Both the position numbers and the translations under genes were made by a program. A DNA stretch of 64,000 bases from Patescibacteria group bacterium (GTDB taxonomy: Bacteria > Patescibacteriota > Patescibacteriia > Veblenbacterales > UBA10138): positions 125,784 through 189,783 of the forward strand of contig JAHITT010000004.1 in the NCBI GenBank assembly GCA_018817715.1, in the 5' to 3' direction. Each line of letters opens with the position of its first letter. Within the stretch, counting starts at the first letter, position 1. This document shows, piece by piece, positions 15,463 through 41,457 of this stretch. Under the pieces are notes generated by a model. The model was not told where the DNA came from. It saw nothing but the letters and a program-made list of their open reading frames with translations, and searched no databases.

Positions 15463-16953
15463 TTATGTACATTTATCACTGCCAGCTGGTTTATCTTTAC
15501 CAGCCTGCCAGCGGGCTGTACCCCATTCAAAATGCCACCATTCACCACAATATCTAACCCAACCAACTTCTGACATAACTTGCTGTAATAAAGATATATC
15601 AGTCCAAACATCATTGGGTACTAAATTAATAGACGGCCGGGCAAAAGCCGAACTAATATAAGGACAACTTTGTCCTTGCAGACAAACATCCACTGCCCCG
15701 CCGGTTAAATGAGGTGCGGCACAACTAGGATAGGCCACAAAACTTCGAACCTTATCCGCACCATGTTTAGCTATACCTTCATTAAACAGTTTAGTTTGCG
15801 TAGCCAAACTTCGATGTGCTGAATTGATTTGTAAGGTTTTATTATATTGTGTTTTTAATATGTTTTGTACTTCCAATAATTTTTGATAAGCCTCCTTATT
15901 AAGCCTAGGGTCGCTGGCATAAACCGCGCCAAATTTTTTGGTTTCTATAGCTGTTAAATTATCTTCATTGGCGCATTTATTTTGATTGCTTGCCGCCGCA
16001 TCACTGTCTGAACCAGTTTTGGCTATAATAGTATCCTCTCTGGTAATTGTTTCCAATTTTAAATCCTTAAATTCAACCAAAGCCGGATTAATTAATTGCA
16101 GTAAAGAATAAGACATTAAAGCAATTACTAAACCAACAATAGCGCTAATAATAGTAGAATTGGCGTTTTTGATAGTTTCGGCGCTACCAGCCGCGGCAAT
16201 ACGTTTAAAACCGCCCCACATTATCATAACCACGGCTATAACAGCTATTAAACCAGTAAAAAATTTATAAAAATCCGCTATATATTGACCTAAAGTATTC
16301 CCTGTTACTACCACAGGTTTACCAGCAGTAAAAATCGTACCCGGTATAGTAACTTGCGGAACGAATTCTGTTGTTTTAGATTCTTGGCTTTGGTTTTGTG
16401 TAGTATTATAACTGTCAGCTGGCATCACACAACCTAATTGCAACACTACTCCATTATCACCATATATCTCTTGACAAGTAGATGGACTACAACAATTTAA
16501 ATTACTACAAGCCGCCCCAACTAGACCTAACAATCCCTCCCAAAGTGACGGAGATTTAAATTCTCCAGGACTTACACAATCAATATTAGTACTAACAGCT
16601 GTAGCATCCGGCACTGTTTCATTAAAAGTATTAAAACTAACACATTTATAAACTTTGGAACCCTGACCTATGTCTTTTTGGCAACAAGCTTTACCAGAGA
16701 TAGCTGAAATAGAACAACCATTACAGTCTACGGCATTAGCCGAACCATAACCACAAACATCTACACCAGCTTCATTTTTTTGACAAGCCGAGGTAACAGG
16801 TGAGCTAAAACCTAGTTCATAACCTTCTGCCTGACAAGCCTGAACAGCTTTAGAAGTCGGATCCGATTGAGCTAAAACAAAAGTCGGCCAAGCAACTAAC
16901 CAACTGACAATCAATAATAAATAAACAACTTTCTGTTTCATATTAATAACCAC
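15463..16953 (-). CDS. Secreted Cys-rich protein with an internal two-helix membrane hairpin (VirB2/TrbC-pilin-like) and a C-terminal LAS/M15 (VanY-type) peptidoglycan peptidase domain. It is a candidate T4SS-associated cell-wall hydrolase.
   Basis: It has a signal peptide and an N-terminal region with many Cys. The hairpin reads FYKFFTGLIAVIAVVMIMWGGFKRIAAAGSAETIKNANSTIISAIVGLVIALMSYSLLQLI. The C-terminal domain contains SAHRSLATQ...AYPSCAAPHLTGGAVDV, matching the SxHxxGxAxD motif of M15 peptidases. Confidence 0.6.
   Translation of the reverse strand: MVINMKQKVVYLLLIVSWLVAWPTFVLAQSDPTSKAVQACQAEGYELGFSSPVTSACQKNEAGVDVCGYGSANAVDCNGCSISAISGKACCQKDIGQGSKVYKCVSFNTFNETVPDATAVSTNIDCVSPGEFKSPSLWEGLLGLVGAACSNLNCCSPSTCQEIYGDNGVVLQLGCVMPADSYNTTQNQSQESKTTEFVPQVTIPGTIFTAGKPVVVTGNTLGQYIADFYKFFTGLIAVIAVVMIMWGGFKRIAAAGSAETIKNANSTIISAIVGLVIALMSYSLLQLINPALVEFKDLKLETITREDTIIAKTGSDSDAAASNQNKCANEDNLTAIETKKFGAVYASDPRLNKEAYQKLLEVQNILKTQYNKTLQINSAHRSLATQTKLFNEGIAKHGADKVRSFVAYPSCAAPHLTGGAVDVCLQGQSCPYISSAFARPSINLVPNDVWTDISLLQQVMSEVGWVRYCGEWWHFEWGTARWQAGKDKPAGSDKCT
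16096..16272. repeat. A ~177-bp segment nearly identical to 20092..20268. It is an intragenic duplication or gene-conversion tract encoding the shared membrane hairpin.
   Basis: Direct comparison by eye shows about 90% nucleotide identity (ttgcagtaaagaataagacattaaagc...ccgcggcaatacgtttaaaaccgccccacattatcataacca...). Confidence 0.7.
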
Positions 16954-17593
16954 TTAACAAATCATTTAGTTCCGTTTGTGTTAAAATGCCACTATGCACC
17001 CGACCATTAATTATATAATAAGGTGTACCATCTAAACCAACCGACCGACCTTCCATAATATTCCTTTGAATTAATGGCAAAGTTTCGTTATTACTCAAGC
17101 AAGTTAAAAATTTAGGCATATTTAATTTTAAATCATTAGCGATTGATTCATACACGAAATCACTTAAACTAGATTGATTTTGAAAAAGTTTATCATGATA
17201 ATCCCAAAATTTACCCTGCAGCGAGGCACACTGAGCCGCTTTAGCAGCCGGCAAAGACTGCTCGTGTTCGGCCAAAGGAAAATCTTTCCAAACTAAACTA
17301 ACTCTATCTTTATTTTGGGCAACCATCACAGACAATAAAACAGCCATTTGAGCACAATAAGGACAAGTAAAATCGCTAAACTGAACAATCGTTAGTTTGG
17401 CTCCATTTTTTACTCCTCTTACTGGGTCAGCTGGAAAAATAGTCACCTCACTAGGATTTTTAGGTTGAACTTTTTCTGTCGGCTGTTCCAAAACTGGATT
17501 AATTATTTTTGATTGCTCTTTTAAATTAAAAAAAATCACGACCAACAAAACCACCGCTAATAAACCAAACCAGAAAGAAATTTTTTTTAACAT
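16943..17593 (-). CDS. DsbA-family thiol:disulfide oxidoreductase, membrane-anchored.
   Basis: 216 aa with an N-terminal TM, the CxxC active site FSDFTCPYCAQM and a thioredoxin-fold length. Confidence 0.7.
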   Translation of the reverse strand: MLKKISFWFGLLAVVLLVVIFFNLKEQSKIINPVLEQPTEKVQPKNPSEVTIFPADPVRGVKNGAKLTIVQFSDFTCPYCAQMAVLLSVMVAQNKDRVSLVWKDFPLAEHEQSLPAAKAAQCASLQGKFWDYHDKLFQNQSSLSDFVYESIANDLKLNMPKFLTCLSNNETLPLIQRNIMEGRSVGLDGTPYYIINGRVHSGILTQTELNDLLSGY

Positions 17594-17644
17594 AAAATAT
17601 TAAAACTTAAATCCTAAATAAATCCCAAATCACAATTTCCAAAC

Positions 17645-17860
17645 TTACTTATCTTTTAACATCTCTTTGTTTTTAAGCTTAATTATTATGGAGTTAAAGA
17701 TTAAGTTTAATTCCTTAGCTTCTTGCCATAATTTGCGAGCTGACCTTATTAATTGACTTATAATCGGCTTAATAACGGTATTATTAGGTAAAGTTTTAAC
17801 AAACTTTATCACAGCTATACCAAAGGCAGCTGTCCTGTTTTCTAAATCATACCTTGGCAT
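17645..17860 (-). CDS. Fragment of a four-helix-bundle protein, possibly truncated or a pseudogene.
   Basis: 71 aa. The N-terminus YDLENRTAAFGIAVIKFVKTLP resembles the four-helix-bundle (23S rRNA-IVS-type) family, but the ORF is only about half the usual length. Confidence 0.3.
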   Translation of the reverse strand: MPRYDLENRTAAFGIAVIKFVKTLPNNTVIKPIISQLIRSARKLWQEAKELNLIFNSIIIKLKNKEMLKDK

Positions 17861-17964
17861 TTTGGGTATTATTTAAGATTTAGAAATTAGGATTTGAGAT
17901 TTTATTAAATTGTTAAACCCCTCCATAGGTTTATTTGTTAATATTTAACCTATTTAAAATAACA

Positions 17965-19206: not shown

Positions 19207-20727
19207 TTATCTATCAGGAAATTCTGTGTCTGTAATATTTAAATCGCAAGCGATTGGTTGCATTTTACCATTACTATCAAACGGCTGGAATAATTTATCA
19301 GCACTAACCTTCGTATAATCAATATCATCCGCTAATAAATCTAAAGCACAAATCGGATAGCCACTATGCCAACGCGTTACACCTATCCCGTTATTGTCCA
19401 AAATTTTCTTACTTATAGTACCACAAGTTGAAGCATCTATAGCATACCAATCATCACAACCGTCCGATTCCCTTTCCACCAACAAAGCCAAACCCTTAAC
19501 CCCGCCCGCTGCTGCACAATGATTGGTATTCTTTAAAGTCAAACCACTCCAACAACCCGTCAAAGTATAATAACCATTATTTTCCACATCCATAGTATCA
19601 CTAATAGTACCATTCGGTTTCATCATGCCACAATCAAAACCTACTTTATCACCGTTATTGCAGATTAATAAAGCATCTAACCTGTTTACTTCTATACCCA
19701 CTAACTTACCCTTTAACATATAGCTACTGCAAGCATAAGGAAAACCCTCCCGAGAAGAATTTTTAAAACAACCCTGACCTGTTTCCTGACATTCCAAACC
19801 AGTACATTCACCAGTACTCAAAACCAATTTTTTACCACAACTGCTACTAGGGGAATTTTTGCCTTGCCGTTCCACACAGGTACCATTTTTTGTTTCACCA
19901 GCCGCTGGCTTACAATCTTCATCTTTAAAACAAGGTAGTCTATCAAATGAACCACCGACACATTCATAATAAGTGTACCCGGCATTATACAAAGATTTGG
20001 CTTCTTGGTATGCAGGGCAAAAACCAAATATTTCCGGCTTAACCATTTCTATGCCCGGCAAGGTATTTTTAACCAAAGCCGGGTTAACCAGTTGCAGTAA
20101 AGAATAAGACATTAAAGCGATTACTAAACCGACAATAGCACTAATAATAGTAGAATTGGCATTCTTTATGGTTTCAGCACTACCGGCCGCGGCAATACGT
20201 TTAAAACCGCCCCACATTATCATAACCACAGCAGCTACAGCCAAAAAACCAATAAAAAATTTATAAAAGGCTGCCAAATAACCAGGAAAACCACCAGTAA
20301 TCCCTGGTCGGCAAAAACCCAAACCTTTTTGCTGACAATCTTGATCAGTAGAACAAGAAGTTGGCTCCTCGCCTAAAGTATAACTGGAACAAAATTTTTC
20401 ACTAACTCCCGGTATACCTACTTGTAAGGGTATAGAGGGGCTGGGGGCAAAACAACGAGCCGTGGCCTGACCGCCAACTTCATCACAATTTTGACAACTG
20501 ATATTAGTCGGATTAGCGGCACAACCACCCGGCAAAACAGAAGGATCTTTTTCCCATAAGCCTTTGCCCTCTTTACAATTATCTTCAAACCAACAACGTT
20601 GCTGAACAAAATCTCCAGCCGCCGCTTTGGCGCTATAACTAAAAATAAAAAATAAAACCAAACTAAAAAAGAAAAATAATAATACTTTTGATGGCTTTAT
20701 TAAAAAAAATCTTTGTAAAATAATCAT
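19207..20727 (-). CDS. Secreted Cys-rich protein with the same VirB2/TrbC-pilin-like two-helix hairpin as 15463..16953. It is a paralogue without the peptidase domain.
   Basis: It has a signal peptide (start chosen at the MIILQRFF ATG) and more than 40 Cys. The hairpin FYKFFIGFLAVAAVVMIMWGGFKRIAAAGSAETIKNANSTIISAIVGLVIALMSYSLLQLV is almost identical to the module in the 15463..16953 protein. Confidence 0.5.
   Translation of the reverse strand: MIILQRFFLIKPSKVLLFFFFSLVLFFIFSYSAKAAAGDFVQQRCWFEDNCKEGKGLWEKDPSVLPGGCAANPTNISCQNCDEVGGQATARCFAPSPSIPLQVGIPGVSEKFCSSYTLGEEPTSCSTDQDCQQKGLGFCRPGITGGFPGYLAAFYKFFIGFLAVAAVVMIMWGGFKRIAAAGSAETIKNANSTIISAIVGLVIALMSYSLLQLVNPALVKNTLPGIEMVKPEIFGFCPAYQEAKSLYNAGYTYYECVGGSFDRLPCFKDEDCKPAAGETKNGTCVERQGKNSPSSSCGKKLVLSTGECTGLECQETGQGCFKNSSREGFPYACSSYMLKGKLVGIEVNRLDALLICNNGDKVGFDCGMMKPNGTISDTMDVENNGYYTLTGCWSGLTLKNTNHCAAAGGVKGLALLVERESDGCDDWYAIDASTCGTISKKILDNNGIGVTRWHSGYPICALDLLADDIDYTKVSADKLFQPFDSNGKMQPIACDLNITDTEFPDR
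20092..20268. repeat. Second copy of the ~177-bp near-identical segment (see 16096..16272).
   Basis: About 90% nucleotide identity to 16096..16272 over the hairpin-coding region. Confidence 0.7.
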
Positions 20728-20737
20728 AAAATAAAAA

Positions 20738-21115
20738 CTACTTAGCAATTGCCTCAATTGCCGCCTCCATACCAACAAAAGGAGTTGATACTGCCTTTAA
20801 ACCAAAAGTGGACACGCACTGAAAAGTATTATCTAAACACCAAGCCGACACAATAATAACAATTAAAACCCCTAAAATCACCCAAGTTATAGGATTGCCT
20901 AATATAGAAGCCACGACACTAATTAACCAAATCATTATTCTCTTCTTAATCTTTGCCTTAATTTTCTGAACTGCTTGTGTCTTAGCTTCACCTAAAGCAG
21001 CTTGCTGGCCCAAATTTTGTGCCTGTTTTAACACTTGTTGACGCCTAGCCATTTCCAGTTGTTCCTGGTATTGTTGTTGCATTTCTTGCTCTTTTTGTTC
21101 TGGTTGGTCGGGCAT
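20738..21115 (-). CDS. Small membrane protein with an N-terminal Q/E-rich coiled coil and two C-terminal TM helices.
   Basis: 125 aa containing MIWLISVVASILGNPITWVILGVLIVIIVSAW. It lies in the cluster between the VirB4-like gene and the pilin-like gene. Confidence 0.4.
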   Translation of the reverse strand: MPDQPEQKEQEMQQQYQEQLEMARRQQVLKQAQNLGQQAALGEAKTQAVQKIKAKIKKRIMIWLISVVASILGNPITWVILGVLIVIIVSAWCLDNTFQCVSTFGLKAVSTPFVGMEAAIEAIAK

Positions 21116-21271: not shown

Positions 21272-21853
21272 TTACTGCCACTCGGCGCCATTTACTAACC
21301 AATCATTATTAATTAAAATCATTTTTAGTTCAATAGCTTGATATTTTATAGTTGCTTCACCATCGCGTGCTTTACTTTCCTGACGCTGAGTACTAACCAA
21401 AACTGTAGCTTGATTTGTTTGGCTAGCTAATACTTCCACTGCCAAAGCCCTAGTAGCCACACTATAAAAAACATCGGTTAACTCCTGGTTAAGCAAAGAA
21501 TTCAAATAACTTTGATAAGCTGGGGTAGTTAAATCAGCCACACTAATTAAATTGGCAAAAGGGTTGTCAGTTGAATAAGAACCAAATTTCTCAACAAATA
21601 AACGTGCCTTGGCTTGTCTGGCATACTGCTGACTATCCGCTGAACTCGTTGCCTCTAAATTATCTAAAGGTAGTTCAATTGTAGAATTATTATTAGTAAT
21701 GGCCGAAAGACTATCGTCTAACTCGGTAATTTCCTGGTTACCAGGCATTTTAGGGGACTCTTGACCCTTAAATTGCCACAAAATAGCAACCACTATTAAT
21801 AAAACAACAATTGAACTTATGATGATGATTAGGTGACGGCGAGAGAGGTACAT
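21272..21853 (-). CDS. Bitopic membrane protein with the topology of a VirB8-like protein (inference).
   Basis: 193 aa. A short cytoplasmic N-terminus and one TM (LIIIISSIVVLLIVVAILW) are followed by a ~150-aa extracytoplasmic domain. It lies immediately downstream of VirB4. Confidence 0.35.
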   Translation of the reverse strand: MYLSRRHLIIIISSIVVLLIVVAILWQFKGQESPKMPGNQEITELDDSLSAITNNNSTIELPLDNLEATSSADSQQYARQAKARLFVEKFGSYSTDNPFANLISVADLTTPAYQSYLNSLLNQELTDVFYSVATRALAVEVLASQTNQATVLVSTQRQESKARDGEATIKYQAIELKMILINNDWLVNGAEWQ

Positions 21854-23841: not shown

Positions 23842-24531
23842 CTATTCTGCTTCCACTTCCAATTTATCCATATTAACCAATTTTTGCTGTTGAGATAATT
23901 CTGGATTATAACTAGTATAATAAAGTTCTACTAAGCCTTGAGTGTCCAAACGAACGCTCTTAAGTCCCAAAGAAGACAAACCACCCGACACCGAATAAAC
24001 TCTTTGCTCTAAAGATTCTAAATAATGAACAAAACGCTCCCGAGAAAGTTGGATGGATTTAGCCGCCGAAAATATTGCTACCAATCTTTGCCAAAAACCA
24101 CGACTTTTATCAGCTCCTGGATTATAAGGTACCACCACATAAAAACGCTTAGTCATAATATCCCCCAAACCAATCAACTCTTTAATATAACCAATATAAT
24201 CTGTCATTTGAACACGCAATAATTCATTAGTTTGTTGTTTTAGTAGGCCACCTAATTTGTCCAAATAACCATCAATATTTAATCGGCGAGATTGGATAAC
24301 AATTTGTAAAGGAAATTCTAAAGAATTTAAAAATTGAACATAACCTTGAATAATGGCCTCTTGCTCTTGTTCACTTTTTAAAACAAAGTTAACTGAAGAG
24401 CAAAGCAAAACCGCCCTTAAAGTACCATCTTTAAGAACAACGGCATCTTCTCTGATTTCTTGAATAGCTAAATGAGAAACCGTGGAAGCCAGTTGGGATT
24501 TTTTACCTGATAATTCTTTTTTAGTAGCCAT
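23842..24531 (-). CDS. Hypothetical soluble protein in the T4SS-like cluster.
   Basis: A 229-aa ORF tightly packed between the VirB3-like and VirB4-like genes. No motif was recognised. Confidence 0.4.
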   Translation of the reverse strand: MATKKELSGKKSQLASTVSHLAIQEIREDAVVLKDGTLRAVLLCSSVNFVLKSEQEQEAIIQGYVQFLNSLEFPLQIVIQSRRLNIDGYLDKLGGLLKQQTNELLRVQMTDYIGYIKELIGLGDIMTKRFYVVVPYNPGADKSRGFWQRLVAIFSAAKSIQLSRERFVHYLESLEQRVYSVSGGLSSLGLKSVRLDTQGLVELYYTSYNPELSQQQKLVNMDKLEVEAE

Positions 24532-24537
24532 AAATAA

Positions 24538-24981
24538 TTATTGATTAATATCTTCTTCCGGATTATAAGCCCCGCCGGTATCTACCATTAAAACTAATTC
24601 CTGTAAGCGCGACTTATTAAAAGGTTGTTTGCTGGAAAGGCTAACTTTAGCCGGCATAACCACTGGCCGACGAACAGCCTTTTTTAAATCTTCCTCATTT
24701 ATTTCTTTCCGCCATATTCTCTCTTTGGGTTGTTTAATACCTTGGAATAAATTCAATAAAAAATAATGAACGGGCATACCATTAACTTTAACAAAAGAGA
24801 AAATAATAGATAAACCAGCTGTTATAATTCCCAACAATAAAAATAAAGCAAAATCAAATAGCTTAAATTCAGCAAACACCAAAAAACCACCAATCATTAA
24901 TATAATAAATTGTCGACTGGTTATCGGACCAAAAATTTTGTCCTCAATGTCTATAAATTGTGGTACCACAAACTGTTTCAT
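24538..24981 (-). CDS. PrgI/VirB3-like small membrane protein with 2 TM helices.
   Basis: 147 aa containing FIILMIGGFLVFAEFKLFDFALFLLLGIITAGLSIIFSFV. Its size, topology and position just upstream of VirB4 match VirB3/PrgI. Confidence 0.4.
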   Translation of the reverse strand: MKQFVVPQFIDIEDKIFGPITSRQFIILMIGGFLVFAEFKLFDFALFLLLGIITAGLSIIFSFVKVNGMPVHYFLLNLFQGIKQPKERIWRKEINEEDLKKAVRRPVVMPAKVSLSSKQPFNKSRLQELVLMVDTGGAYNPEEDINQ

Positions 24982-24986
24982 AAATT

Positions 24987-26846
24987 CTAGAACCTTAATT
25001 TTTCATTAAAATCCACTACCGCCTGGAACTCTTCTTCTGTTAAATAAATTTGGCCAACCAGCGATTGCTCGGAAATAATTTGACTGATTGATTTACCATG
25101 CTCAATACTTAGACGGCCTAAATCTAAATAATTACGATAAACCTCGGAGGCCTGCCAAGAACGAATAGCTTCAATTTTTTTAGCTATGGAAGTTTCACCA
25201 ATTAATTCTATTTTAGTTTGTATCTTACGCAAAGCCTCTGTAGGCTTAACAGACAAACGCCGAAAATCCACTAAGGTCAAGGTCTTTAATTCTTCTAAAG
25301 GACCTAAAAGTCTAGACGGCGCTTTAACATCAGTAAGTTGCGGTTTAGGTTTAGTTAAAATAACTGGCTGATCGGATTTAATAGAAGAATTTTTATTACT
25401 AACCGGACTAGCCGAACCAACAGAAACGGCAGCCGACCTGGCTAATTCTTGTAAAACTTTTTGCCGATCTAACTTAACATCTTCTTTTTTAACAAATTCT
25501 ATTTTTGGTTTTACTGTAATTTCCGGCCTAACTATAGAAGCCTGAGGCGACTCCACCTTTTTAACCACAGGTAAAGCTACTGGCTTGGCTGGTAAAACTA
25601 CTGGCAATTCAGCGGCGATTAATTTATCTATCTCTTGTTTGCCAGTTGAAATTTTAGCCGGCTTATTATTTATCTTTAACGATTGACGATCAACAATTGG
25701 CGATTCAAAATCCTTTTTAGCTTTTTCGATTATACCGGCTACTTTATCGGCTACTGGTTCACTTAGACCTAACCCACCAACAGTTACCAACTTCATTAAT
25801 GATTCCTTAACCTCTACTTGATTACGCACCTCTTTAAGCCTAGAAACAAACAATAATTCAAAGCGCCGAGCATTTACTTCATCTTTAAAACTCAAATTAT
25901 TCTTAACTATTACTTCCTTAGCAAAATCCCTTAGCCTCTCTTCTAGGGGTACTTTTGGGGTCTGCTTTGTTTCGTTAGTTTGATCTCGGTATTTATCAGC
26001 TTCTTTTTCATCAGCCTCGTCAAACAAAAAAGCAGGAGCTGATGATTTTAAAACTTGAGGAGTATTAGATGTTTCTATTTTTACTTCTTTCAACTCTTTC
26101 TTAGGTAATATTTTACTTATTATAGGACCAGCATCAGCTTCTTGTATTTCTCTAACTTGACCTTTGTCTAAAATTATTTTTTTATCATTTTCTATAAAAC
26201 TACCTTTTTCTTCTAAACCTTCTGGGGTCAAAGAAGAATGCCCTAAATAATCAAACAAGACTAATAACTTTCTTACCTCCTCTTTAACAGCTGGGTCTAA
26301 TTTCTTTAAAGATTCTCTTTGGGACATATATTGCTCCCTCTTAAGAGAATCCGATATCTCCACACCAACCACTGAAATATAATCTTTAAGCCAATCACCA
26401 ACTGTACGCAAAGAACCGCTTGCTCCGTGACTTTCCACAAAAATAGCTCTACTATTAACTAAAACCTCTTTTAAATTTTTCTTTAAAATATCTCTATCTT
26501 CGTGTATTAAAATTCTTAAAAGCTTGGCTTCTAATTTAGCCAATAAATCAATTTCATTACTTCCTAATACTACTGATAAACCCTGACGAAAAAATTCTAG
26601 TACCTCATCATTATTCAAAAAAGGTAAACACTCTCCATGCAATAACCAAATAATTTTATTATAATTATTTTTGGTTAATTGATCTAACGACTTATCTTGT
26701 TCCACAGCTGATTTTATTTTTTTTAAAAATTCATAAGAGGTTCCAATATCGTCTTGGACAATCAACCAGTTAGCATAATCAGACAATCTTTCAAAAAATT
26801 GTTGGTCTCTTAAGGGAATATTCTTTATAATATTTTGTGTAACCAT
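24987..26846 (-). CDS. Hypothetical charged or coiled cytoplasmic protein in the cluster.
   Basis: A 619-aa, K/E-rich ORF with no nucleotide-binding motif seen. It is operonic with its neighbours, with gaps of 5-14 nt. Confidence 0.4.
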   Translation of the reverse strand: MVTQNIIKNIPLRDQQFFERLSDYANWLIVQDDIGTSYEFLKKIKSAVEQDKSLDQLTKNNYNKIIWLLHGECLPFLNNDEVLEFFRQGLSVVLGSNEIDLLAKLEAKLLRILIHEDRDILKKNLKEVLVNSRAIFVESHGASGSLRTVGDWLKDYISVVGVEISDSLKREQYMSQRESLKKLDPAVKEEVRKLLVLFDYLGHSSLTPEGLEEKGSFIENDKKIILDKGQVREIQEADAGPIISKILPKKELKEVKIETSNTPQVLKSSAPAFLFDEADEKEADKYRDQTNETKQTPKVPLEERLRDFAKEVIVKNNLSFKDEVNARRFELLFVSRLKEVRNQVEVKESLMKLVTVGGLGLSEPVADKVAGIIEKAKKDFESPIVDRQSLKINNKPAKISTGKQEIDKLIAAELPVVLPAKPVALPVVKKVESPQASIVRPEITVKPKIEFVKKEDVKLDRQKVLQELARSAAVSVGSASPVSNKNSSIKSDQPVILTKPKPQLTDVKAPSRLLGPLEELKTLTLVDFRRLSVKPTEALRKIQTKIELIGETSIAKKIEAIRSWQASEVYRNYLDLGRLSIEHGKSISQIISEQSLVGQIYLTEEEFQAVVDFNEKLRF

Positions 26847-26860
26847 AGTCTAGTACAGTA

Positions 26861-29800
26861 TTATTTGATTTTTAATATTTTTTTAATATCATCAAATTCG
26901 TCATGCATACCTGTACCATAATTTCGAACACGACCCATAATTGATTTAAATTGACCATACTGACTTCTAGCAATAATACCTGTTTTTTGGGCTAAATTAT
27001 CTAAATTTTCTAAATTATTATTAGAACCAACTTTAGTAGCTAGGTTAACATTAAAACGACCTCGACCCATCATATCAGGATATTTTGAATAATTTTCTAA
27101 AATATAAGCTTTACCAAAATCGTTCAATTCGAATTTTCTATTACGATGTTCTCTATAATATTTGGCTTTTTCTTCGCGACTAGCGTCAGCTGGCAAATTA
27201 CCATACTCAATTACTTCACGCCCATAAGCCAAACGATTTGCTCGACGGCTAAAGTTTTCAAAATCCTGTTTTCTAACTTCAGCTAAACATTCAATCATTC
27301 TCTCATCTTCATCAGCCCATTCTAAACGACCATTTTTTACATTAACAGCCCTAGCTACACCCCAGTGCTGTACACCTTCTCCGGTATAAGCTATATCACT
27401 AGCGACGGACAAAGCTTGCTCCCTAGCCATACCTAATTTTTTAATAAATATATCCTCAACAAATTGTTTTAACCCACCAGCATCTGAATCATAACCATAC
27501 ATATTAAAAAATTCATTCTCATTTCCATATTCTGTAGCTTTCAAGGCAGCTGCTGCCGCTCGATTAGAATCACCCACATGAACAGCATCTTCAAATATTT
27601 TAAATAATTCTTCCCAGTTATCTGTCGTCATATCACCCTTTTCTTTATTAATAGCCAAACGTTGATCGCGCCTAATACCATAATCAGTTGATGGGCTAAA
27701 TTTTTCTGCACTTTTACCTAAGACACCCGCTTCGTCTTTTAATTGTTTAATTTGTCTATTAAGCTCATCTAATTCACCCGCACCAACTGCCGAAGATTTA
27801 AAGTTTTCTTGCAACTTTTCCGCCTCTTTCCTTAATATAGATGCTTGTTTAATATTCTCGTCTTTTTCTTTTTTAGTAAGTTGGTCATTTCTTCTCAAGT
27901 TTTTCAAATCTTCATCAATTCTTCTTAATAAATCATTATCCTTTTTTAATAATTCATTAATTTCTTGCGGTGTTCTGCCTTTAACCTTCTCTTGAGTTCG
28001 ACGGTTTTCTCTATCTTTAATAACATCTTTTTTTTGTTCCTCTAATTTATCAATTTCCTTTTTTCTACTGTGTCTTTGTTGTTTTGTTAATTTGTCTGGA
28101 CCTAAATTATCAGCCTCAATTAATAATTTATCTATATCATCTTTTAGCTCATTGTTTTTTAAATCAGCCAATTCACTATTAGGTAATAACAATTTTTTAT
28201 TTATATCATCTAATTTTTTTCGTGCTTGTGAAAATTTCAACCTATTATTCTGTAATAATTTTTCTTTTCCCGAATCAGTACTCATGATATCTATTAACTT
28301 AGATAACTCATCCGCCTCCTCTTGTTTTTCCATAGCCTGACTGACCTTACCTTGCCCTTGAAAATTAGCCATTTCCTTTTTTAAAGATTCGAGATGAACG
28401 TGAGCCTGTTTAATATTTCGACCATCCTCAATCATTTTATAATCATCATCAAAAACCTTCAATTCTTCCTCAAATAATTTTTGACCTCCTAATAATTCTC
28501 CCCTATAAGAACCTCCTTTATCTCGCATTTTTAACTGCTCTTCTAATGCCTTAGCTTGCTCCAATTTTTCTTGTTGCTGTTGATAATGTTCAGCAGCTTT
28601 TTTACCTGTTACTTCATCCATATGCCCCGTAGCCACCTTACCCAAGGTACGCCAATTCCACTGATGTTCAAATAAATGCTCGGGCGAGCCCAATACTTGC
28701 CAAAAACTGCCTTTTTCCCGACGTTTAGAATAAACACTTTGACGAATAGTATCTCGTGATTCTTCACGCTTATGCTTACCCGCTTCCCAACCATGCTTCC
28801 ATTTTTCAATTGAACCTTGTACACCTAAACGAGCGGAAGCTTCTGACCACAAATAACTACCCAATTCCTTGGCTCCTTTACCAGCTAAACCAGCCACCCC
28901 CTTAGCCACTGTAAACGGCGATTTAACTATAGACGAACCTATACTCTGCATTTTAGCCAAGGCGCTACCGGCTAATTTACCACCCGCCACACCTAATTTT
29001 TGTGTCATCCACAAACCACCCAACAAAATAACAATATTAATTATAAAAGACAGTAAAATCTCTGATTGACCAATGCCGGTTATAGCCACCCCTGGCACAT
29101 CTTTAAAAGAATAATCACTTCCACTCTGACCGACAAAAGAATCCAAAACATTATTAGAGGTTTGCATCATGGACAAAGCCAACCATAGAAAAAAAGCTAA
29201 AATCGGACCAGCTGACAAATATTTACCAAAATACTCCCACCATTCTGAAGAATATTTTTTAGCTTGCCCAGGAAAAGCTGCTAACAAAAAAGCCAAAGGA
29301 GACATAATAGTTAACAGCCACAAAAAAGCTATTCGCACCAAAAAAACCACTAAATAAATAGCCACCACCACCATAGCCACAGTTATACTGATAAGAGCTA
29401 AAATACTGGCCACAAAAAAACTGTTTTCATTCGGAGTAGCTCCTTCAATGGTCTTGCTTTTAGAGAATTCAAACATTTCCGACAAATGAAAACCATTCAC
29501 CAAATTGCCAGCGGCCGCTTCTTTAAAACCATTAACAAAAGTCAACATGACCACCTGAGCAAAATCAATAAAAAAACCGGTTAACATTTTGGAAAAATTA
29601 ACCAGCACCGACATTATTAAAAGTTTACTTAATAGTTTTTTATATTGATACTCTTCTATGCGAAAAACTGTGGCAAAAGCTATAACCAACATCACCACGA
29701 TAACAAACATGTTGGCTAGATCCCTAATAATTACCCAGCCCTTAGCTACGGCCGGAGCATTTATAAAATCATTATATTGAACTATGCCAATTAAAATGCC

Positions 29801-29989
29801 AATTAAAGTAACGGTTAAACCACCAATAAATTCGGCCAAAGGCAGTATTAAATTCTGTCCTAACCAGCTACCAAAATTAGCTGAGGCAGTTGTTGGCAAA
29901 AAAAGTCCTAAACCCAAAATTAAAACCAAACCCAGCAAAAAACCGGTTTTTTTTAAGCTTATTTTAGTAAAAACCTTTGCTAGGTTCAT
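26861..29989 (-). CDS. VirB6/TrbL-like polytopic membrane protein with a long C-terminal coiled-coil/charged extension.
   Basis: 1042 aa. The N-terminal ~400 aa have 7 or more TM helices, starting after an N-terminal signal-like TM. A ~350-aa coiled coil rich in E/K/Q and a ~250-aa globular C-terminus follow. Confidence 0.5.
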   Translation of the reverse strand: MNLAKVFTKISLKKTGFLLGLVLILGLGLFLPTTASANFGSWLGQNLILPLAEFIGGLTVTLIGILIGIVQYNDFINAPAVAKGWVIIRDLANMFVIVVMLVIAFATVFRIEEYQYKKLLSKLLIMSVLVNFSKMLTGFFIDFAQVVMLTFVNGFKEAAAGNLVNGFHLSEMFEFSKSKTIEGATPNENSFFVASILALISITVAMVVVAIYLVVFLVRIAFLWLLTIMSPLAFLLAAFPGQAKKYSSEWWEYFGKYLSAGPILAFFLWLALSMMQTSNNVLDSFVGQSGSDYSFKDVPGVAITGIGQSEILLSFIINIVILLGGLWMTQKLGVAGGKLAGSALAKMQSIGSSIVKSPFTVAKGVAGLAGKGAKELGSYLWSEASARLGVQGSIEKWKHGWEAGKHKREESRDTIRQSVYSKRREKGSFWQVLGSPEHLFEHQWNWRTLGKVATGHMDEVTGKKAAEHYQQQQEKLEQAKALEEQLKMRDKGGSYRGELLGGQKLFEEELKVFDDDYKMIEDGRNIKQAHVHLESLKKEMANFQGQGKVSQAMEKQEEADELSKLIDIMSTDSGKEKLLQNNRLKFSQARKKLDDINKKLLLPNSELADLKNNELKDDIDKLLIEADNLGPDKLTKQQRHSRKKEIDKLEEQKKDVIKDRENRRTQEKVKGRTPQEINELLKKDNDLLRRIDEDLKNLRRNDQLTKKEKDENIKQASILRKEAEKLQENFKSSAVGAGELDELNRQIKQLKDEAGVLGKSAEKFSPSTDYGIRRDQRLAINKEKGDMTTDNWEELFKIFEDAVHVGDSNRAAAAALKATEYGNENEFFNMYGYDSDAGGLKQFVEDIFIKKLGMAREQALSVASDIAYTGEGVQHWGVARAVNVKNGRLEWADEDERMIECLAEVRKQDFENFSRRANRLAYGREVIEYGNLPADASREEKAKYYREHRNRKFELNDFGKAYILENYSKYPDMMGRGRFNVNLATKVGSNNNLENLDNLAQKTGIIARSQYGQFKSIMGRVRNYGTGMHDEFDDIKKILKIK

Positions 29990-30303: not shown

Positions 30304-33300
30304 CTAATTCTTGGGCTTAACAATAATTCGTTTAGGATAATAATCAGCCCGAGCTGACCAATTAAAACCAGTATTAATGCTAGGCAATTTATCTTCATAT
30401 TGTCCATTATCCTTAGCCCACCAACCCCAGTTGTCCCGCAAAGCTACACCGGGTTTATAAACACAAGCCTGCAAAGTACTATCCCAATTTAAATTATTTT
30501 TACCACTACAAGTATAAGTAGTAGTATAAAAGAAATAACCTACTTGATTATCCTGATCGGCCACACAAGCTTCGGGACTATCACCAAAGTTAAAAGCTGG
30601 ATTGTTAAGACAAGTCTTACCGCTTGCACATTGTTTGTCCGTAGTGCAAGGTGTGGGTGTACCAATACAAACCTTGGGTGACTGACAGATAGGTTTATGA
30701 TTTCTTAAAGAAGCTTCCACTTCAATATTTCTAGATTTACCCAAAGCACCATTAATACCCCAATCTACACCCACAAATCTGATAGGCATTTGATTACCAT
30801 TGGGGTTATAACCATAAAAAGATAAAGTAATCGGCAAAGGACTTTGACCCATAATATCCTCACTAGTATGACTGGTACCAGAATAAGACACGGTTACTTT
30901 AGCACCAGCATCTTGACCCATGGTTTTACCTTTAGCATCAAAAGACACACCCGCTATAACAGGGGCTTGCGGTTCCACTACGCCCGGAATAGTCTGATTG
31001 CTTAAATCAAAACTACCACCTGGTAAAGTTATGGGAATATTAAATATCGGAATAGTAAAAGTTATAGGATCTTTAGGCAAGGCTTTATATTTGGCTGTGG
31101 CAGTATCCCAATTAAAAGTATTGTAAAACTTAACAAACAAATTCTTTATTAAATTAACTCCGCCAATACTACTCGTTGGCAAACTTAAGGCTGGGCTGGT
31201 ACCCGTACACATAAAAGGAGTTTTCTGAGTGGGACAAGGTTGGCCAGTCGAAGAATCACAATGAACCGTTGGATCATAATAGCCACAGAATCTGTTTTCG
31301 CCAGTGGCCGCTGGATCACACAACGATTTATCTTTGTTTATTGTTATATTAGGATTATCTTTATCTGGCACACCAGCTAAACACATCCAACCACTACAAC
31401 TGCCCCCACCGGCGCCACTACAACCATAAACACCCGGGGCATAAGGCTGAATTTCATTACTAATTAAAGGTTGATATTGAGCTACTGGTATTACCCTGGT
31501 CGGTTCCAATTCCGGACCTAAATGTCCTGTGTATTCAAAAGTAGTGGAAGATGGTACAAAAGCGCCAAAAGGTGCATTTAAATAATGATTAGCTTTACTA
31601 CCGGCGGTAGCATAAGTATAACCAACCTGGGGCACCACATAATTACTTAATTCATTAACCCGATTAGTTTGAGCCTTGTTATTAATAACATCATTAGGAT
31701 TAGAACTGACTACTTGGGCCACCACATCACACCACTCTCGCAAGGTATATTTAAGAACTATATAAAAATCGGCCGCCCCACCTGGATCTTTATCATTAAT
31801 CCGCAAAGTTAAATACTTATCCGGATCATTAGGATTAAAAACAGCAGTCATAGAACACAAACCCTTACCATCACTATCACAACTGTAACGATTTACCTGA
31901 TCGCTTAATTTATAACGACTAACAATTAAACGTGAGCGTTTATTATTACTATCGGTTTGACCGTATTTTCTAAAATGACCTTCAATTTCTATACTCTCAA
32001 TGGCATCTAAACCACCCAGTTGTTTTTCCAAACCGCCCAAACTTAAAGCAAAAGACATTTCATAATCCACTTTACCGGAAATTATTAATGGTGCAAAAGG
32101 TTGACCAGTCTTAGCTGGAGAAAAAATTCCCGTTAAGCCGAAAAGGCTAAATGACTGACCACCTACATTGGGACACACCTTATCTTTACCATCCCAAGCC
32201 GTGCTAGCATTCGGACTATATAAACAATCAGTAGTTGGGCCAGTTACCACATCACTAGGCGCTAATGGTACACCCTGAACCGACCGAGCGTTCTCGGGAA
32301 GAAAAGTAATCGGCTGAGGATTATCCAAATAATAAAGCTGACTCTGCTTAGAAGTTGTCTGAGCCAAACCACGAGCAGCGGCACAATAATACATAGCCTG
32401 ATTACCTGGTGACACAAAACCGGCTTTAGGCCTATCATCATAAATAGAAACTTCACCTTGTACCACATCTATCGGTAGCCAAGTTAAACAAGCGTCATCG
32501 GCGCCGTTATTTATTTTGCGAGCTGAATCTTTTTCTAAACAATAACCCTTTAACCCTTGAGCAAAAGTTATTTGTTTTAAGGCGCTTTGCTCCTGCTTGG
32601 CTTCTAGACAAGGTTCGCTGCCAGATAAAGAACCAGCACAAACCTCACCTACCGGATTAATCGGGTCAGTAGGCTGGCTACGATAATTATAAAACCTAGT
32701 TTCACCATTCTTATAAACCGCCCGTTGATAAGCGCACTCACAATTTTCATCTGGATCAGTACTTGGCTGACAAACATTAGCGTCTTTATAACCAGGCGCC
32801 CGGCTCATTAATTTAGCTTCTTTGCTTTCTGAATTCCAAGTAGCCACATTAGCTGGGAAGGGGGCGTCGGGCTCGGGATATAAGCGACAAGCTTTGGTGC
32901 TAGCCAAAGAAACTGCACAAGCTGAACTGGAATTAATAGCATCTAAAGAACACAAACCTGGTATAGAATAGCCAGTGTAATCCTGGCCAGCCCAAGTGGT
33001 GTTCCGCCCGATATAATCCGCTTCATCCAAAGGATGCTGTTCTGACTGCGGTTCTAACCAATTACCACAACCGCCAGCCGCATTGCCACTACTAGCCTGA
33101 TTACAACGACCCAAAGAATAACATAATTCCCGAGGCTTGCCAGCCGAATCGGTAATGGTCGTGCTAGTCTGACAACTTAACCACTCAGCACAAACCCGAT
33201 CACGCTGAACTTTTAAGATAGTATTAGCACTAGGTTGTTGACCTTGAGTAAACGAACAATAAACATTGTCACCTAAACAATCAGCAGTTTTTTGACAAGA

Positions 33301-36300
33301 ACGACTAGGCTCACTAGAACAAACCCCACGAGGCGCTAAGGGTGCTACCTGAGCATTATCTTGGCTACGACTTTGTTCATAAGTTAAAGGAGCAGACCAA
33401 GCTAAATCGCCACCCAGTGACAAATCGGTTACTAACAAACAACCATCTTTTTCACCAACTTTACCACCGCAAGTGGAACGATCCAATTTACCATTATCCA
33501 AATAATAATAAGTCCGGTTGGTTAAAGTATTGTCCTGGAAAGCTTTGCAAGACGAAGCTTCAGCTGGACAAGTATAAGCATAAGGCACAGCCAAAAACTC
33601 CTTAGCTTGATCATTAGTTAAACTATTAGGCAATTCTAATAAACGAACATCATCCACATAAACAGTGCTAGTTTGACGTAAACTACCTTCGTTAGTTATT
33701 AAACCAACTGATAAGGTATCAATATTAGGCTTAGTTTTTATAATATAAGTTCGATTGAGCCAAACTCCTTTAGGATCAGTGACTACAATTGTTGGATTAC
33801 CAGCCACCATCTCATAATGATGACAAGTACCCCCACCGCAACCCGTACCGACTTTGGGATAAGCGTGCCTAGACAAAGACCAACTACCCTGCAGAACTTC
33901 TTCCTTGGGTAAATAAATTTGAGCGGAAACTAAGAATAATCTTTCTTGGTTTTTAGGTTCCACTGTCACATGGGAGGACCAAACGCCAGAATATTGCTGA
34001 TCTGAAGTGGCTTTAACCTTAAGCAAACTACCACCCCAATATTGACCGTTTAAGGATCCTTGAGCGTATAACTGACCCTTACCATCTTCTTGACCGGCGC
34101 CATTTCTTTCCCAGCCGACAAAATAATCTTGAGTATTATCGTTTATTTGACCAGAACCCTTCAGGCCACTTATACCGGCAAAATTTTCAAAACTACCATT
34201 AATCAAAAGATTACAAGGCTCGGTTGTGCCAGTCTTGTACCAATCATAAGATTGGCCAGCCCGAAGTTGTTTATATTCACAAGTTCTAGAACCAGGATCT
34301 TTAAAATAATAAGTACTATTACCAGCTTTATATTCCTGACAACGATCTTGTTCTTTAGAACAAAGAGGTGAAGTTGGTCCAGCGGCAAAATTATCCGGAT
34401 CTAAACGCATAAATTTATCTGACCAACCCTGCAAAAATCCAGCAGCCGTAAAACTCGGTTCACCCAATCTTTGGCAAGATTGCATTTGTGCCGAACACTG
34501 TTTAGTCCGATCATAAATACGGTAAACCACCTGATCTTTAGCTGTGGTGACAGTCTGCCCGCCTACGGTAACTGTTTGCAATTGAGGACTTAGAGAATTT
34601 TTAGTGTCGACCAAAGCTTCACAACCAACAGCTTCTTGACGGCACAATTTAGAAAAACCAGTAAAAGAATAGGCTCGATTCTGCCTATCTTTATAAGATC
34701 GGCAACCTAAATATTTTAATTGATCGCCGTTAGGCTGACAGCTTGTCGGCGTAGTCCAAGAATCTTTTTTCAAAAAGAACCGGTCACCAACTTCTTGCAC
34801 AGCAATATTATCAGCCACAAATCTTACACCGGCCGCGGCCAATTGCACCCTGACACCTTGGCTAATATTGGCACTGGTTGGTAAAGTAACTGGTCCAATA
34901 GTATAAAGTTGCCAATCATTAGTTAGTTCGGAAGCTGGTAAATTAAAATTAATAGTTGCTTGAGGATTCAAACTGGATTCGGCCGCACTAACATAATTAA
35001 CTGTATAAGTTAAAGATCCGTTGTCAGTCAAAATACCATTAACTGGTCCACAATCATTACCAATACAAGTCTGGCTACCACCGGGATTAGCTTCTACGGA
35101 ATAAACTGTGGCACCACTAGTGCCTACTGGATTACCTGAACGCCAAATAAAATTAAAATCTCCTGATGGCTGATTGGAACGTATTACTAAACCAGTTATG
35201 GGAATATTACTACCAGCCGTATTGTTATTTAAACTGTAAGCTCCACCACCAGCCACTGGCTGACCATTCAAAGTCATTTTTAAATAAACCGTGCCTTGGT
35301 TGGTGACCACAGGATCACCCGACCCAGTGCCAGGGGGGGTAGTAGGTGTACGTGGGGTACTAACAACAGTTGTTAAACCTTTGGATTCACCACCACTATT
35401 ATAAGCCCTAACCTGATAAACAAACCGACCATCCAAACTTAAACCTTTGTTTTGACCATCAACAGGATCTACTCCTAAATCCGGAAAACTAACCGCGCCG
35501 GCATTGGGCAATACTTGAATAAGTTTAACGGCCCGACCATTATCGCCCCGATAAACAGTAAAACCAGTTTCATTATCACTACTATCTTGCCAATTTAAAG
35601 TAGCCTTATATTGACCGCTAGGACAATCGCCCGAACAAATCGCTAAACTGGCGGTTAAACCAGTAGGCGCAATTGGTAATTGAATATTTTTATTAGAACC
35701 AACATCTTTAGGTAAAGAAAAGAAACCAGTGCCAGAACCCGCCTGGGCAACAAAAGTATCTACTAAAAAGTAAGAAAATTTACCCCCATCACTAATTGTT
35801 TGACCAGCCAAATTTTTAGCCGTTACTCGCCAAGCATAAGTACGGCCTGGCTCTAAACCGATAAAATCACTTGCTGCTAACCCAGCCACGGGCAAACTTA
35901 AAGTAAATCTATCAACATCATTTTTTCGGCCAATTTCTTGCCAACCATCAGCTAAAGTTGATTTATCGTCATAGTGCATCAATTGAACATCATACTTATC
36001 AGCATAATTGGCCCGCTGCCAAGTCAAAACCGGATTATTAGTATTCACTTTAGCGTAATTGTCCTGACTGCCGTGCGGATCTACCGTAGCAAAAGCCTGC
36101 GGTGGCACCTGAGTAATAAATTCAATAGCTCTTTCCGTTGGCGTGCCAGCGCTATTGTAAGCCACCACCCTAATTTTAGTAGCCTGACCTAATTTAATTG
36201 CTCCAACATTAACCGGCATAGTCAATTCCGTTTTGGCTAAAGCGCGCCAAATAACTGGCGTGCCATAAGGTTGTTCAATAATTACTAAATAATTAACAGC

Positions 36301-40743: not shown

Positions 40744-41457
40744 TTAAAAACCAAATAACTGTTTAACCGTAGCCTGCAAAGTAGTGTCATCTATTATATC
40801 TAATTCCTTAGCATCGGCGCCGCCAGCTATTAAAAACTGCCTTAATTCAGCACCGGACATTTTTTGTAAAAGCTCTTTTTCTTGATCCGTTAACTGAAGA
40901 CTGGTATCTAAAGCTCCGGCTGACCCTGTAGTTGCTTTATTTTCACCAGCCACTTGCTGATAAATATTAATTAATGTTTGGTCATTATATTTAGCCAACA
41001 TTTCATCAGTGGCGCCGTTATTCTTAAGCATTTGCCTAATTTCCTCGGGACTGGGCGCTGCTTCAACATCATAACCAGCGGTTTCTGATTGGCTAACTGG
41101 AGCCACAAATTTTAAACAATCCTGACCTTGAGGACAATTAGGATCACTACCATTATCCACTTCCGCTTTGTCATCTAAACCATCTGAATCAGTATCTTTT
41201 AAATAAAGACTAGTCCGGTAAAAATTTATTTCCTCATAATCAGACAAACCATCACCATCCGTATCACTAGCCCGTAAAACCGTTTCATTAGCTACTGTCA
41301 TTTGACTATCGTCATTGTAAATTTTGGGTGCAAAGGGCAATTTTATTGAATTACTAATCTGCCAAACTCCGAAAACTACTGCCAATAAAGCTATGGTGGC
41401 CAAACCCCAATTATGCCCAGTCGGCCCGTTTATTTCGGAAATATCTTGCTCGGCCAT
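40744..41457 (-). CDS. Membrane-anchored protein with calcium-binding DxDxDG repeats (thrombospondin type-3-like).
   Basis: 237 aa with an N-terminal TM and the repeats DTDGDGLSDYEE and DTDSDGLDDKAE. Only 12 nt separate it from the giant gene. Confidence 0.45.
   Translation of the reverse strand: MAEQDISEINGPTGHNWGLATIALLAVVFGVWQISNSIKLPFAPKIYNDDSQMTVANETVLRASDTDGDGLSDYEEINFYRTSLYLKDTDSDGLDDKAEVDNGSDPNCPQGQDCLKFVAPVSQSETAGYDVEAAPSPEEIRQMLKNNGATDEMLAKYNDQTLINIYQQVAGENKATTGSAGALDTSLQLTDQEKELLQKMSGAELRQFLIAGGADAKELDIIDDTTLQATVKQLFGF

Follow-up and report, generated by a model that had tools for sequence, protein, structure and literature searches.

The type IV secretion systems (T4SSs) of Patescibacteria are chromosomally encoded relatives of the MPF-FATA class that carry VirB2-like pilins, usually lack a relaxase, and for the most part have no VirB1 homologue near virB4 (PMC12102498). 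They are regarded as repurposed (PMC12102498, PMC10633639). In Candidatus Southlakia epibionticum (Ca. S. epibionticum), the T4SS is essential for epibiotic growth, and the pilin genes of Patescibacteria T4SSs are likewise essential for this lifestyle, parts for DNA transfer being missing (PMC10633639, PMC12857230). Two proteins encoded next to virB4 in Ca. S. epibionticum, one with a LAS fold and one lysozyme-like, are both essential as well. Here, we analyze the last gene of a T4SS-like cluster in a 64,000-nucleotide (nt) stretch of DNA from a Patescibacteria group bacterium (Veblenbacterales, UBA10138; GenBank assembly GCA_018817715.1, contig JAHITT010000004.1, positions 125,784 to 189,783 of the forward strand), the whole of which is called the window below. 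The gene encodes a 492-amino-acid (aa) fusion protein in which a Cys-rich N-terminal ectodomain, a VirB2-like pilin hairpin, and an M15 peptidase domain follow one another. The explanation that we favor, to which we give about an even chance, is that this protein is the hairpin-tethered, disulfide-stabilized, extracellular M15 wall-opening enzyme of the T4SS-like machine and hence a functional analogue of VirB1.

The VirB1-class hydrolases of monoderm bacteria (PrgK of pCF10, TraG of pIP501, and Orf14 of Tn916) are likewise encoded in T4SS clusters, membrane anchored, and extracytoplasmic, and their wall-lytic domains are modular and interchangeable. The catalytic domains listed for VirB1-like proteins are CHAP, SLT, muramidase, and LytM, the last being the LAS-type domain that PrgK carries (PMC12857230). 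The fusion protein differs from this class in that its only catalytic domain is of the M15 (VanY/LdcB/VanX) type rather than SLT, muramidase, CHAP, NlpC/P60, or LytM and in that its anchor is a VirB2-like two-helix hairpin accompanied by a second, Cys-rich ectodomain. Also unlike the systems of this class, the one described here comes without a relaxase or coupling protein among the open reading frames (ORFs) of at least 100 aa in the window.

Within the Patescibacteria, SEML1_0007 of Ca. S. epibionticum ML1 is also encoded in a T4SS cluster, beside virB4, and was essential in transposon sequencing (Tn-seq). Its C-terminal domain is classified in ECOD as Hedgehog/DD-peptidase (LAS), and its top structural neighbor is a "Peptidase M15B domain-containing protein." Unlike the fusion protein, SEML1_0007 has 1,113 aa with no PF18895 hairpin reported and lies directly downstream of virB4 instead of at the end of the cluster, and the two are compared here by fold class. 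A LAS-fold peptidase is, then, already on record in an essential Saccharibacterial T4SS cluster (SEML1_0007, S. epibionticum supplement). An original prediction for this locus, made by a model from the DNA alone, had called an M15 peptidase on a pilin-like hairpin "non-canonical." This goes too far, because LAS folds already occur in T4SS hydrolases, as LytM in PrgK (PMC12857230) and as the Hedgehog/DD-peptidase domain of SEML1_0007. Pilin-hydrolase fusions are not described in PMC12102498, PMC10633639, or PMC12857230, and M15, VanY, and carboxypeptidase are not mentioned in the main text of PMC12102498 or PMC12857230. The domain families themselves are known, and the fusion is widespread and automatically annotated (MBU1039030.1).

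Results

Anatomy of the fusion protein

The minus-strand ORF that holds the peptide quoted in the original prediction spans 15463 to 16953 and gives 496 aa if begun at its GTG, a codon overlapping the final codons of the upstream DsbA-like gene. Residues are numbered here from the ATG at 16941, because it lies 1 nt past the TAA stop of the DsbA-like gene and because the identical NCBI protein MBU1039030.1 ("D-alanyl-D-alanine carboxypeptidase family protein," Patescibacteria group bacterium) has 492 aa. This ATG, rather than the GTG, is the probable true start, and the DsbA-like gene and the fusion gene are probably translationally coupled.

The proposed tripartite architecture was found in full: a Cys-rich ectodomain, a PF18895 hairpin, and an M15 domain (Table 1). 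Hydropathy picks out three hydrophobic segments, at aa 5 to 23, 227 to 245, and 260 to 278, the first corresponding to the signal peptide and the other two to the hairpin. Cysteines number 14 in the N-terminal ectodomain, none in the hairpin, and 6 in the linker and M15 domain combined. No Pfam family matched the ectodomain, which the AlphaFold2 (AF2) model renders with a predicted local distance difference test score (pLDDT) of 36 to 75 (mean for the whole protein, 68.9) and which shows weak C-x-GC...CC-x-K similarity (E, 0.013) to the variant protein with a terminal 3D domain that is described below.

An M15 peptidase domain with all catalytic motifs

As judged from sequence and model, the C-terminal domain is an M15/LAS peptidase of the Hedgehog/DD-peptidase fold with the full catalytic motif set, in line with the identity first proposed for it. 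The Pfam profile VanY (PF02557) matched aa 346 to 426 above its cutoff (E, 4e-7; 30.3 bits versus 25), Peptidase_M15 (PF01427) matched aa 448 to 476 below its cutoff (E, 7e-5; 23.1 bits versus 27), and no unrelated family was matched; the motif and profile matches of the fusion protein far exceed chance. When 12 homologues that are 29 to 74% identical to the query are aligned, the C-terminal positions without any substitution are S374, R377, Q382, L385, H411, G414, D418, M456, G460, E467, W469, and H470, and the complete catalytic set SxxR, HxxGxAxD, and ExWH is unchanged. The expected H, D, H zinc-binding triad is thus present as the predicted ligands H411, D418, and H470, the last of them in the ExWH motif, which the original prediction did not cite. 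Of the motif that it did cite, SxHxxGxAxD, the HxxGxAxD part stands and the serine does not: the actual residues are A-P-H-L-T-G-G-A-V-D, with Ala in its place, and the LdcB counterpart of this region reads SEHQTGLTMD.

A profile made from the 12-homologue alignment scored best in the PDB against Bacillus anthracis LdcB (4mph; E, 8e-11). Further matches were Bacillus subtilis LdcB (4ox3), VanY (5hnm), VanXYc (4mur), and VanX (1r44) and, among endolytic enzymes, the L-Ala-D-Glu endopeptidase Ply500 (2vo9) and LysB4 (6akv). The alignments place SAHRS, PHLTGGAVD, and EWWH opposite SGFRS, EHQTGLTMD, and EPWH. Likewise, the AF2 model, with a pLDDT of 71 to 95 over aa 330 to 492, was matched by Foldseek with a probability of 1.0 to VanXYc, LdcB, VanX, VanXYg, and DacB (E, 3.8e-7 to 1e-3 over the set of entries 4oak, 4ox3, 1r44, 4mph, and 4d0y) and more weakly to ChiX, LysECD7, and MepA. 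A fold search against viral structures matched the domain to actinophage endolysins and virion-associated peptidases.

What the domain cuts is less clear. LdcB/DacB and VanXY/VanY/VanX (M15B/M15D) share its fold and the motifs SxxR, HxxGxAxD, and ExxH, but identity is only about 20%, and they are small, soluble or singly anchored proteins with neither a pilin hairpin nor a link to a secretion system. Every NCBIfam equivalog score is far under its cutoff (vanXY, 39.9 versus 250; DdpX, 30.2 versus 176; LdcB, 17.1 versus 275). Phage M15 endolysins (Ply500 and LysB4, and those of Microbacterium and Clavibacter phages) have the same fold and motifs and illustrate that endolytic L-Ala-D-Glu cleavage is within the reach of VanY-type domains, but they are soluble, with wall-binding domains and no membrane hairpin. 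The nearest characterized relatives of the predicted peptidase are carboxypeptidases and dipeptidases, yet the family includes endolytic enzymes. A word-index search with the M15 domain alone returned nine small stand-alone proteins of the PF01427 (D-Ala-D-Ala dipeptidase) family, of GC-rich type, that have PPHLTGGAVD and GEWWHFEWGT in common with the query.

Exchange of the catalytic domain within one slot

An exhaustive homologue search returned 12,928 cluster representatives at an E value of 1e-3 or below, 2,191 of them at 1e-10 or below. Among the top 150, 99 have HxxGxAxD together with ExWH, and the alignment is typically one unbroken stretch from the hairpin through the ExWH motif. Pfam annotation of 113 top representatives gave T4SS_pilin in 95, VanY in 82, and Peptidase_M15 in 71; SLT was found in 6, Peptidase_C39_2, M15_4, and M15_3 in 3 each, 3D in 2, and NlpC/P60 and CHAP in 1 each.

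Six loci (L003, L005, L007, L009, L010, and L011) keep the gene order of the window, namely, PrgI, TraC-like, VirB4, two small genes, a hairpin-type protein of about 420 to 560 aa (two copies in L003), PD40, (DsbA), the slot held here by the fusion gene, RadA, and RecG; L009, a short contig, starts downstream of VirB4. The slot is occupied by a hairpin-M15 protein in L003, L005, L010, and L011, and, with the signal peptide-ectodomain-hairpin layout retained, by a protein with a terminal 3D domain in L007 and by one with a terminal Peptidase_C39_2-like domain in L009. There is a second syntenic context, in which Exo_endo_phos and DsbA precede the slot; its occupant is hairpin-M15 in L001 and L008 and hairpin-3D in L012. 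In our view the strongest argument comes from this exchange of the peptidase, on a single scaffold, for modules of the glycan-cleaving and cysteine-peptidase kinds. The exchange indicates that what is conserved in the slot, as read from gene content, is generic wall lysis of the VirB1 kind and not specific trimming of stem peptides, and it strengthens the wall-hydrolase role that had been predicted.

In the second lineage, the hairpin-hydrolase gene comes after a DsbA-like gene and an operon for pyruvate:ferredoxin oxidoreductase (PFOR) (L001, 3827 to 11392; L008, 5662 to 11191; L012, 1326 to 5275). Unannotated genes are inserted between the PFOR subunit genes of these loci, encoding 372 and 437 aa in L001, 266 aa in L008, and two unknowns at the same place in L012.

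The original prediction also linked the enzyme to an unusual cell wall. We find no support for this and rejected the idea: canonical peptidoglycan-specific domains (SLT, 3D, and LysM-M23) are present on this scaffold or elsewhere in the window, and the fact that relatives equip this hairpin with ordinary SLT, 3D, CHAP, and NlpC/P60 domains argues for ordinary peptidoglycan.

The pilin hairpin and its paralogue

The T4SS_pilin profile (PF18895) matched aa 215 to 281 (E, 1.4e-9; 38.3 bits versus a cutoff of 26.6), and the NCBIfam model for the Mbov_0395 pilin-like conjugal transfer protein scored 36.4, just under its cutoff of 40. The transmembrane (TM) segments are joined by a short basic loop, GFKRIAAAGSAETIK, and the model places helices at 214 to 249 and 254 to 284. 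In Foldseek, the hairpin resembles the Aeropyrum pernix conjugation pilin 8dfu weakly (E, 1.1). A word-index search with the hairpin alone returned three proteins.

Patescibacteria VirB2/TrbC-like pilins (PF18895; the SEML1_0014-0019 array) share with this protein the hairpin profile, a signal peptide, a location near virB4, and the presence of several paralogues. They are, however, about 130 aa long, and their paralogues are divergent, with a mean identity of 25% (PMC12102498), whereas here the hairpin is embedded in proteins of 492 and 506 aa and the paralogue hairpins are 84 to 89% identical. The fusion protein is thus not a small, essentially hairpin-only pilin: an ectodomain of about 180 aa lies N-terminal to the hairpin, and some 200 aa, made up of a 35-aa linker and the 167-aa M15 domain, extend it at the C terminus.

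A custom hidden Markov model found only two hairpin ORFs in the window, the fusion protein and the 506-aa protein. The C-terminal beta-rich domain of the latter has no Pfam family, and the AF2 model of the protein (pLDDT, 63) has no PDB fold match at an E value of 0.001 or below. The two hairpin-coding segments form a 213-nt direct repeat of 86% identity (16072 to 16284 and 20068 to 20280). Conservation across the M15, 3D, and C39 variants and the second hairpin protein is highest in the hairpin. Across genomes, the hairpin paralogues of one genome carry common genome-specific loop sequences, and in distant genomes paralogous hairpins are closer than orthologues (for example, 0.88 for P0009-P0031 against 0.71 for P0009-P0001). 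At conserved residues, the fraction of identical codons is 0.45 for the within-genome pair of L009 and 0.57 to 0.74 for the other six such pairs, against a between-genome mean of 0.49, but codon usage common to one genome inflates this measure and makes the point only suggestive. Taken together, the co-variation of hairpins within genomes is suggestive, on sequence grounds, of gene conversion or of co-evolution with a shared partner. In L003 (4395 to 7673), two tandem large hairpin proteins of 528 and 560 aa occur besides the hairpin-M15 protein, so that this one cluster has three hairpins, whose loops are near-identical.

The T4SS-like cluster and the rest of the window

The fusion gene closes a T4SS-like cluster encoded on one strand, with VirB4 5 kb upstream, and is followed by RadA and RecG (Table 1). 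The T4SS setting originally proposed is borne out by VirB4 and PrgI. Its description as a conjugation system is not, and the reading as a conjugative element was rejected: the chromosomal cluster is flanked by housekeeping genes, and its lack of a relaxase and coupling protein, noted above, extends to every window ORF of at least 100 aa. Elsewhere the window has the content of an ordinary chromosome (PGM, SHMT, FolD, LeuRS, KsgA, PNPase, S15, and others).

Table 1. Features of the fusion gene and of the T4SS-like cluster (window positions)
Feature	Position	Strand	Remarks
Fusion gene (pilin hairpin/M15), 492 aa	15463..16941	-	Stop codon within range; ORF as called mechanically begins at GTG 16953
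Signal peptide, aa 1-25, MKQKVVYLLLIVSWLVAWPTFVLAQ	16867..16941	-	Hydropathy; helix 3-22 in model; cleavage probably after VLA (VLA/QS)
Cys-rich N-terminal ectodomain, aa 26-205, 14 Cys	16327..16866	-	Low model confidence; poorly conserved
VirB2-like T4SS_pilin hairpin, aa 206-290	16072..16326	-	TM1, basic loop GFKRIAAAGSAETIKNANS, TM2, NPALV motif
Linker, aa 291-325	15967..16071	-	Low model confidence; semi-conserved GSDS motif
Predicted M15/LAS zinc peptidase domain, aa 326-492	15466..15966	-	5 Cys, plus 1 in linker
SAHR motif (S374, R377)	15811..15822	-	Equivalent of SG(Y/F)RS in LdcB/VanXY; checked in DNA
HLTGGAVD motif (H411, D418, predicted Zn ligands)	15688..15711	-	Checked in DNA
EWWH motif (E467, predicted catalytic base; H470, third predicted Zn ligand)	15532..15543	-	Checked in DNA
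DsbA/MdbA-like membrane-anchored thiol-disulfide oxidoreductase, CPYC motif	16943..17593	-	Directly upstream of fusion gene
PD40 beta-propeller protein, N-terminal TM segment	17965..19200	-	Conserved cluster member
Second hairpin protein, 506 aa, 28 Cys	19207..20727	-	NCBI "pilin" MBU1039034.1; C-terminal beta-rich domain, conserved
Two small membrane proteins	21272-21853, 20738-21115	-	
VirB4-like ATPase, 624 aa	21929..23803	-	TraG P-loop/AAA_10/DUF87
229-aa protein	23842..24531	-	Slot of PF26593 "TraC-like" proteins in related loci (by position only)
PrgI (VirB3-like) protein	24538..24981	-	
619-aa protein	24987-26846	-	
1042-aa polytopic protein, candidate extended VirB6	26861..29989	-	7 predicted TM segments in first 330 aa (hydropathy)

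The 229-aa protein found no match in the local Pfam copy, and the 1,042-aa polytopic protein is a candidate extended VirB6 by analogy to SEML1_0011. Cysteine content sets some members of this region apart: the fusion protein has 20 Cys, the second hairpin protein 28, and a giant neighbor 116, against 1 or 2 each in VirB4 and the 229-, 619-, and 1,042-aa proteins. This richness and the adjoining DsbA/MdbA-like gene fit a location of both large domains of the fusion protein outside the cell; enrichment in DsbA/MdbA-like oxidoreductases is described for the Candidate Phyla Radiation (PMC6744442).

The giant neighbor, a secreted protein of 3,475 aa with weak fn3 matches (30304 to 40731, minus strand), flanks the cluster on the side opposite the fusion gene, and just past it lies a bacterial TSP3-repeat protein (40744 to 41457, minus strand). 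A similar giant-protein/TSP3/KsgA/LeuRS arrangement recurs in L008. The PD40 and DsbA-like genes are 371 nt apart (17594 to 17964), and this gap holds a 71-aa ORF without a Pfam match (17645 to 17860, minus strand); the equivalent cluster of L011 contains a 23S_rRNA_IVP (four-helix bundle) gene. In a scan of 13.8 to 21.5 kb, promoter and terminator counts equaled those of shuffled controls and say nothing on operon structure.

No further recognized wall hydrolase is encoded inside the T4SS-like cluster. The only other recognizable peptidoglycan hydrolase of the window, a protein with two LysM domains and Peptidase_M23 (47312 to 48535), lies outside it on the plus strand. Elsewhere, also on the plus strand, are a PilT/PilB-type T2SSE ATPase of type IV pilus machinery (62589 to 63626) and an XerC/D-type tyrosine recombinase (55045 to 55923).

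Discussion

We believe that the combination of the architecture, the intact catalytic motifs and fold, membership in a T4SS-like cluster, and interchangeability of the catalytic module is best explained by a VirB1-like role. The fusion protein would be exported via its signal peptide, and the VirB2-like hairpin would insert in the membrane such that the Cys-rich N-terminal domain and the C-terminal M15 peptidase both face outward. We infer this extracellular location from the signal peptide, the two TM segments with their basic loop, the Cys-rich ectodomains, and the abutting DsbA-like gene, whose product probably oxidizes the cysteines of both outer domains. The linker of about 35 residues would hold the peptidase beside the T4SS-like apparatus, where it may act on the cell's own peptidoglycan, cutting stems or cross-links, and so allow the apparatus to span the monoderm wall. 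The protein would then be a functional analogue of VirB1, PrgK, and TraG, with a pilin hairpin in place of a plain anchor.

Several observations speak against this VirB1-like role. The wall is opened neither by carboxypeptidases, which do no more than trim stems, nor by dipeptidases, whose substrate is free D-Ala-D-Ala. It is to such enzymes (LdcB, VanY, and VanXY) that the nearest characterized relatives of the M15 domain belong, and, with all NCBIfam equivalogs missed, its specificity is open. In the Falkowbacteria-type loci L001 and L008, the gene comes after the PFOR operon, with no VirB4 within 10 kb. Furthermore, since the conserved block takes in housekeeping genes (RadA, RecG, and SHMT), gene order alone may reflect shared ancestry and not function. 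Finally, the very high conservation of the hairpin and its genome-specific co-variation suggest that it is more than an anchor.

This last point leads to an alternative in which the hairpin is a true polymerizing or tip-forming VirB2-type subunit that is extracted by the T4SS, so that the M15 domain is displayed on a pilus-like structure and the host wall is breached where epibiont and host meet. The hairpin is indeed the most conserved segment in all variants, and the genome-specific loops, the likeness of paralogues, and the raised fraction of identical codons fit co-assembly or a shared docking partner, although that fraction is inflated by within-genome codon usage. Also in keeping with a subunit of this kind, the two large proteins are the sole hairpin proteins in 64 kb, and there is the weak resemblance to the A. 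pernix pilin. Pilin genes are essential for epibiotic growth in Patescibacteria, whose system has no DNA-transfer parts (PMC10633639, PMC12857230), and among the fold matches of the M15 domain are phage peptidases, virion-associated ones and endolysins, that attack walls from outside. On the other hand, domains of about 180 to 200 residues at each terminus are hard to fit in a VirB2-type shaft, and no pilus has been seen for this lineage. On balance, we consider a true pilin subunit unlikely. Still more doubtful is the extended scenario of a T4SS-dependent, enzyme-armed pilus in Patescibacteria, in which subunits with interchangeable M15, SLT, 3D, and cysteine peptidases drill the host wall for epibiotic feeding contact and co-assembly would underlie the way in which the two hairpins co-vary from genome to genome.

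Alternatively, the protein might be a housekeeping LD- or DD-carboxypeptidase, similar to LdcB/DacB or VanXY, that trims stem peptides during growth, the hairpin being a mere anchor and the proximity to the T4SS inherited. The best profile and fold matches are to LdcB, VanY, and VanXY carboxypeptidases, the NCBI name points the same way, and the stand-alone PF01427 relatives carry both extended motifs of the query. The housekeeping genes within the conserved block and the position away from VirB4 in L001 and L008 are consistent with this reading, too. However, if the protein were a stem-trimming carboxypeptidase, its catalytic domain could not be swapped, with scaffold and slot unchanged, for 3D, SLT, C39-like, NlpC/P60, or CHAP. 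Likewise, the NCBIfam scores for LdcB (17 bits versus 275) and VanXY (40 versus 250) do not favor such an assignment, and the conservation of the hairpin is above the need of a passive anchor. We therefore regard growth-time trimming as improbable.

That the M15 domain merely binds peptidoglycan or is a decayed enzyme, in an adhesin or scaffold, has a conceivable parallel in the LytM domain of PrgK, a T4SS-associated LAS domain of doubtful activity, but seems very improbable here given that none of the 12 aligned homologues, down to 29% identity, departs from the zinc ligands, the catalytic Glu, or the substrate Arg and that 99 of the top 150 cluster representatives have the motifs.

In conclusion, the T4SS-like systems of Patescibacteria are essential for epibiotic growth, while their working mechanism is obscure; in surveys, most come without a recognizable VirB1, yet, oddly, with VirB2-like pilins. 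The domains described here are ordinary and their architecture is common, so that a known system is refined and not a new one revealed. A large class of such "pilins" consists of hairpins fused to interchangeable, predicted peptidoglycan hydrolases, which offers a concrete answer to the missing VirB1. In addition, wall-cutting enzymes may be delivered on the secretion apparatus itself.

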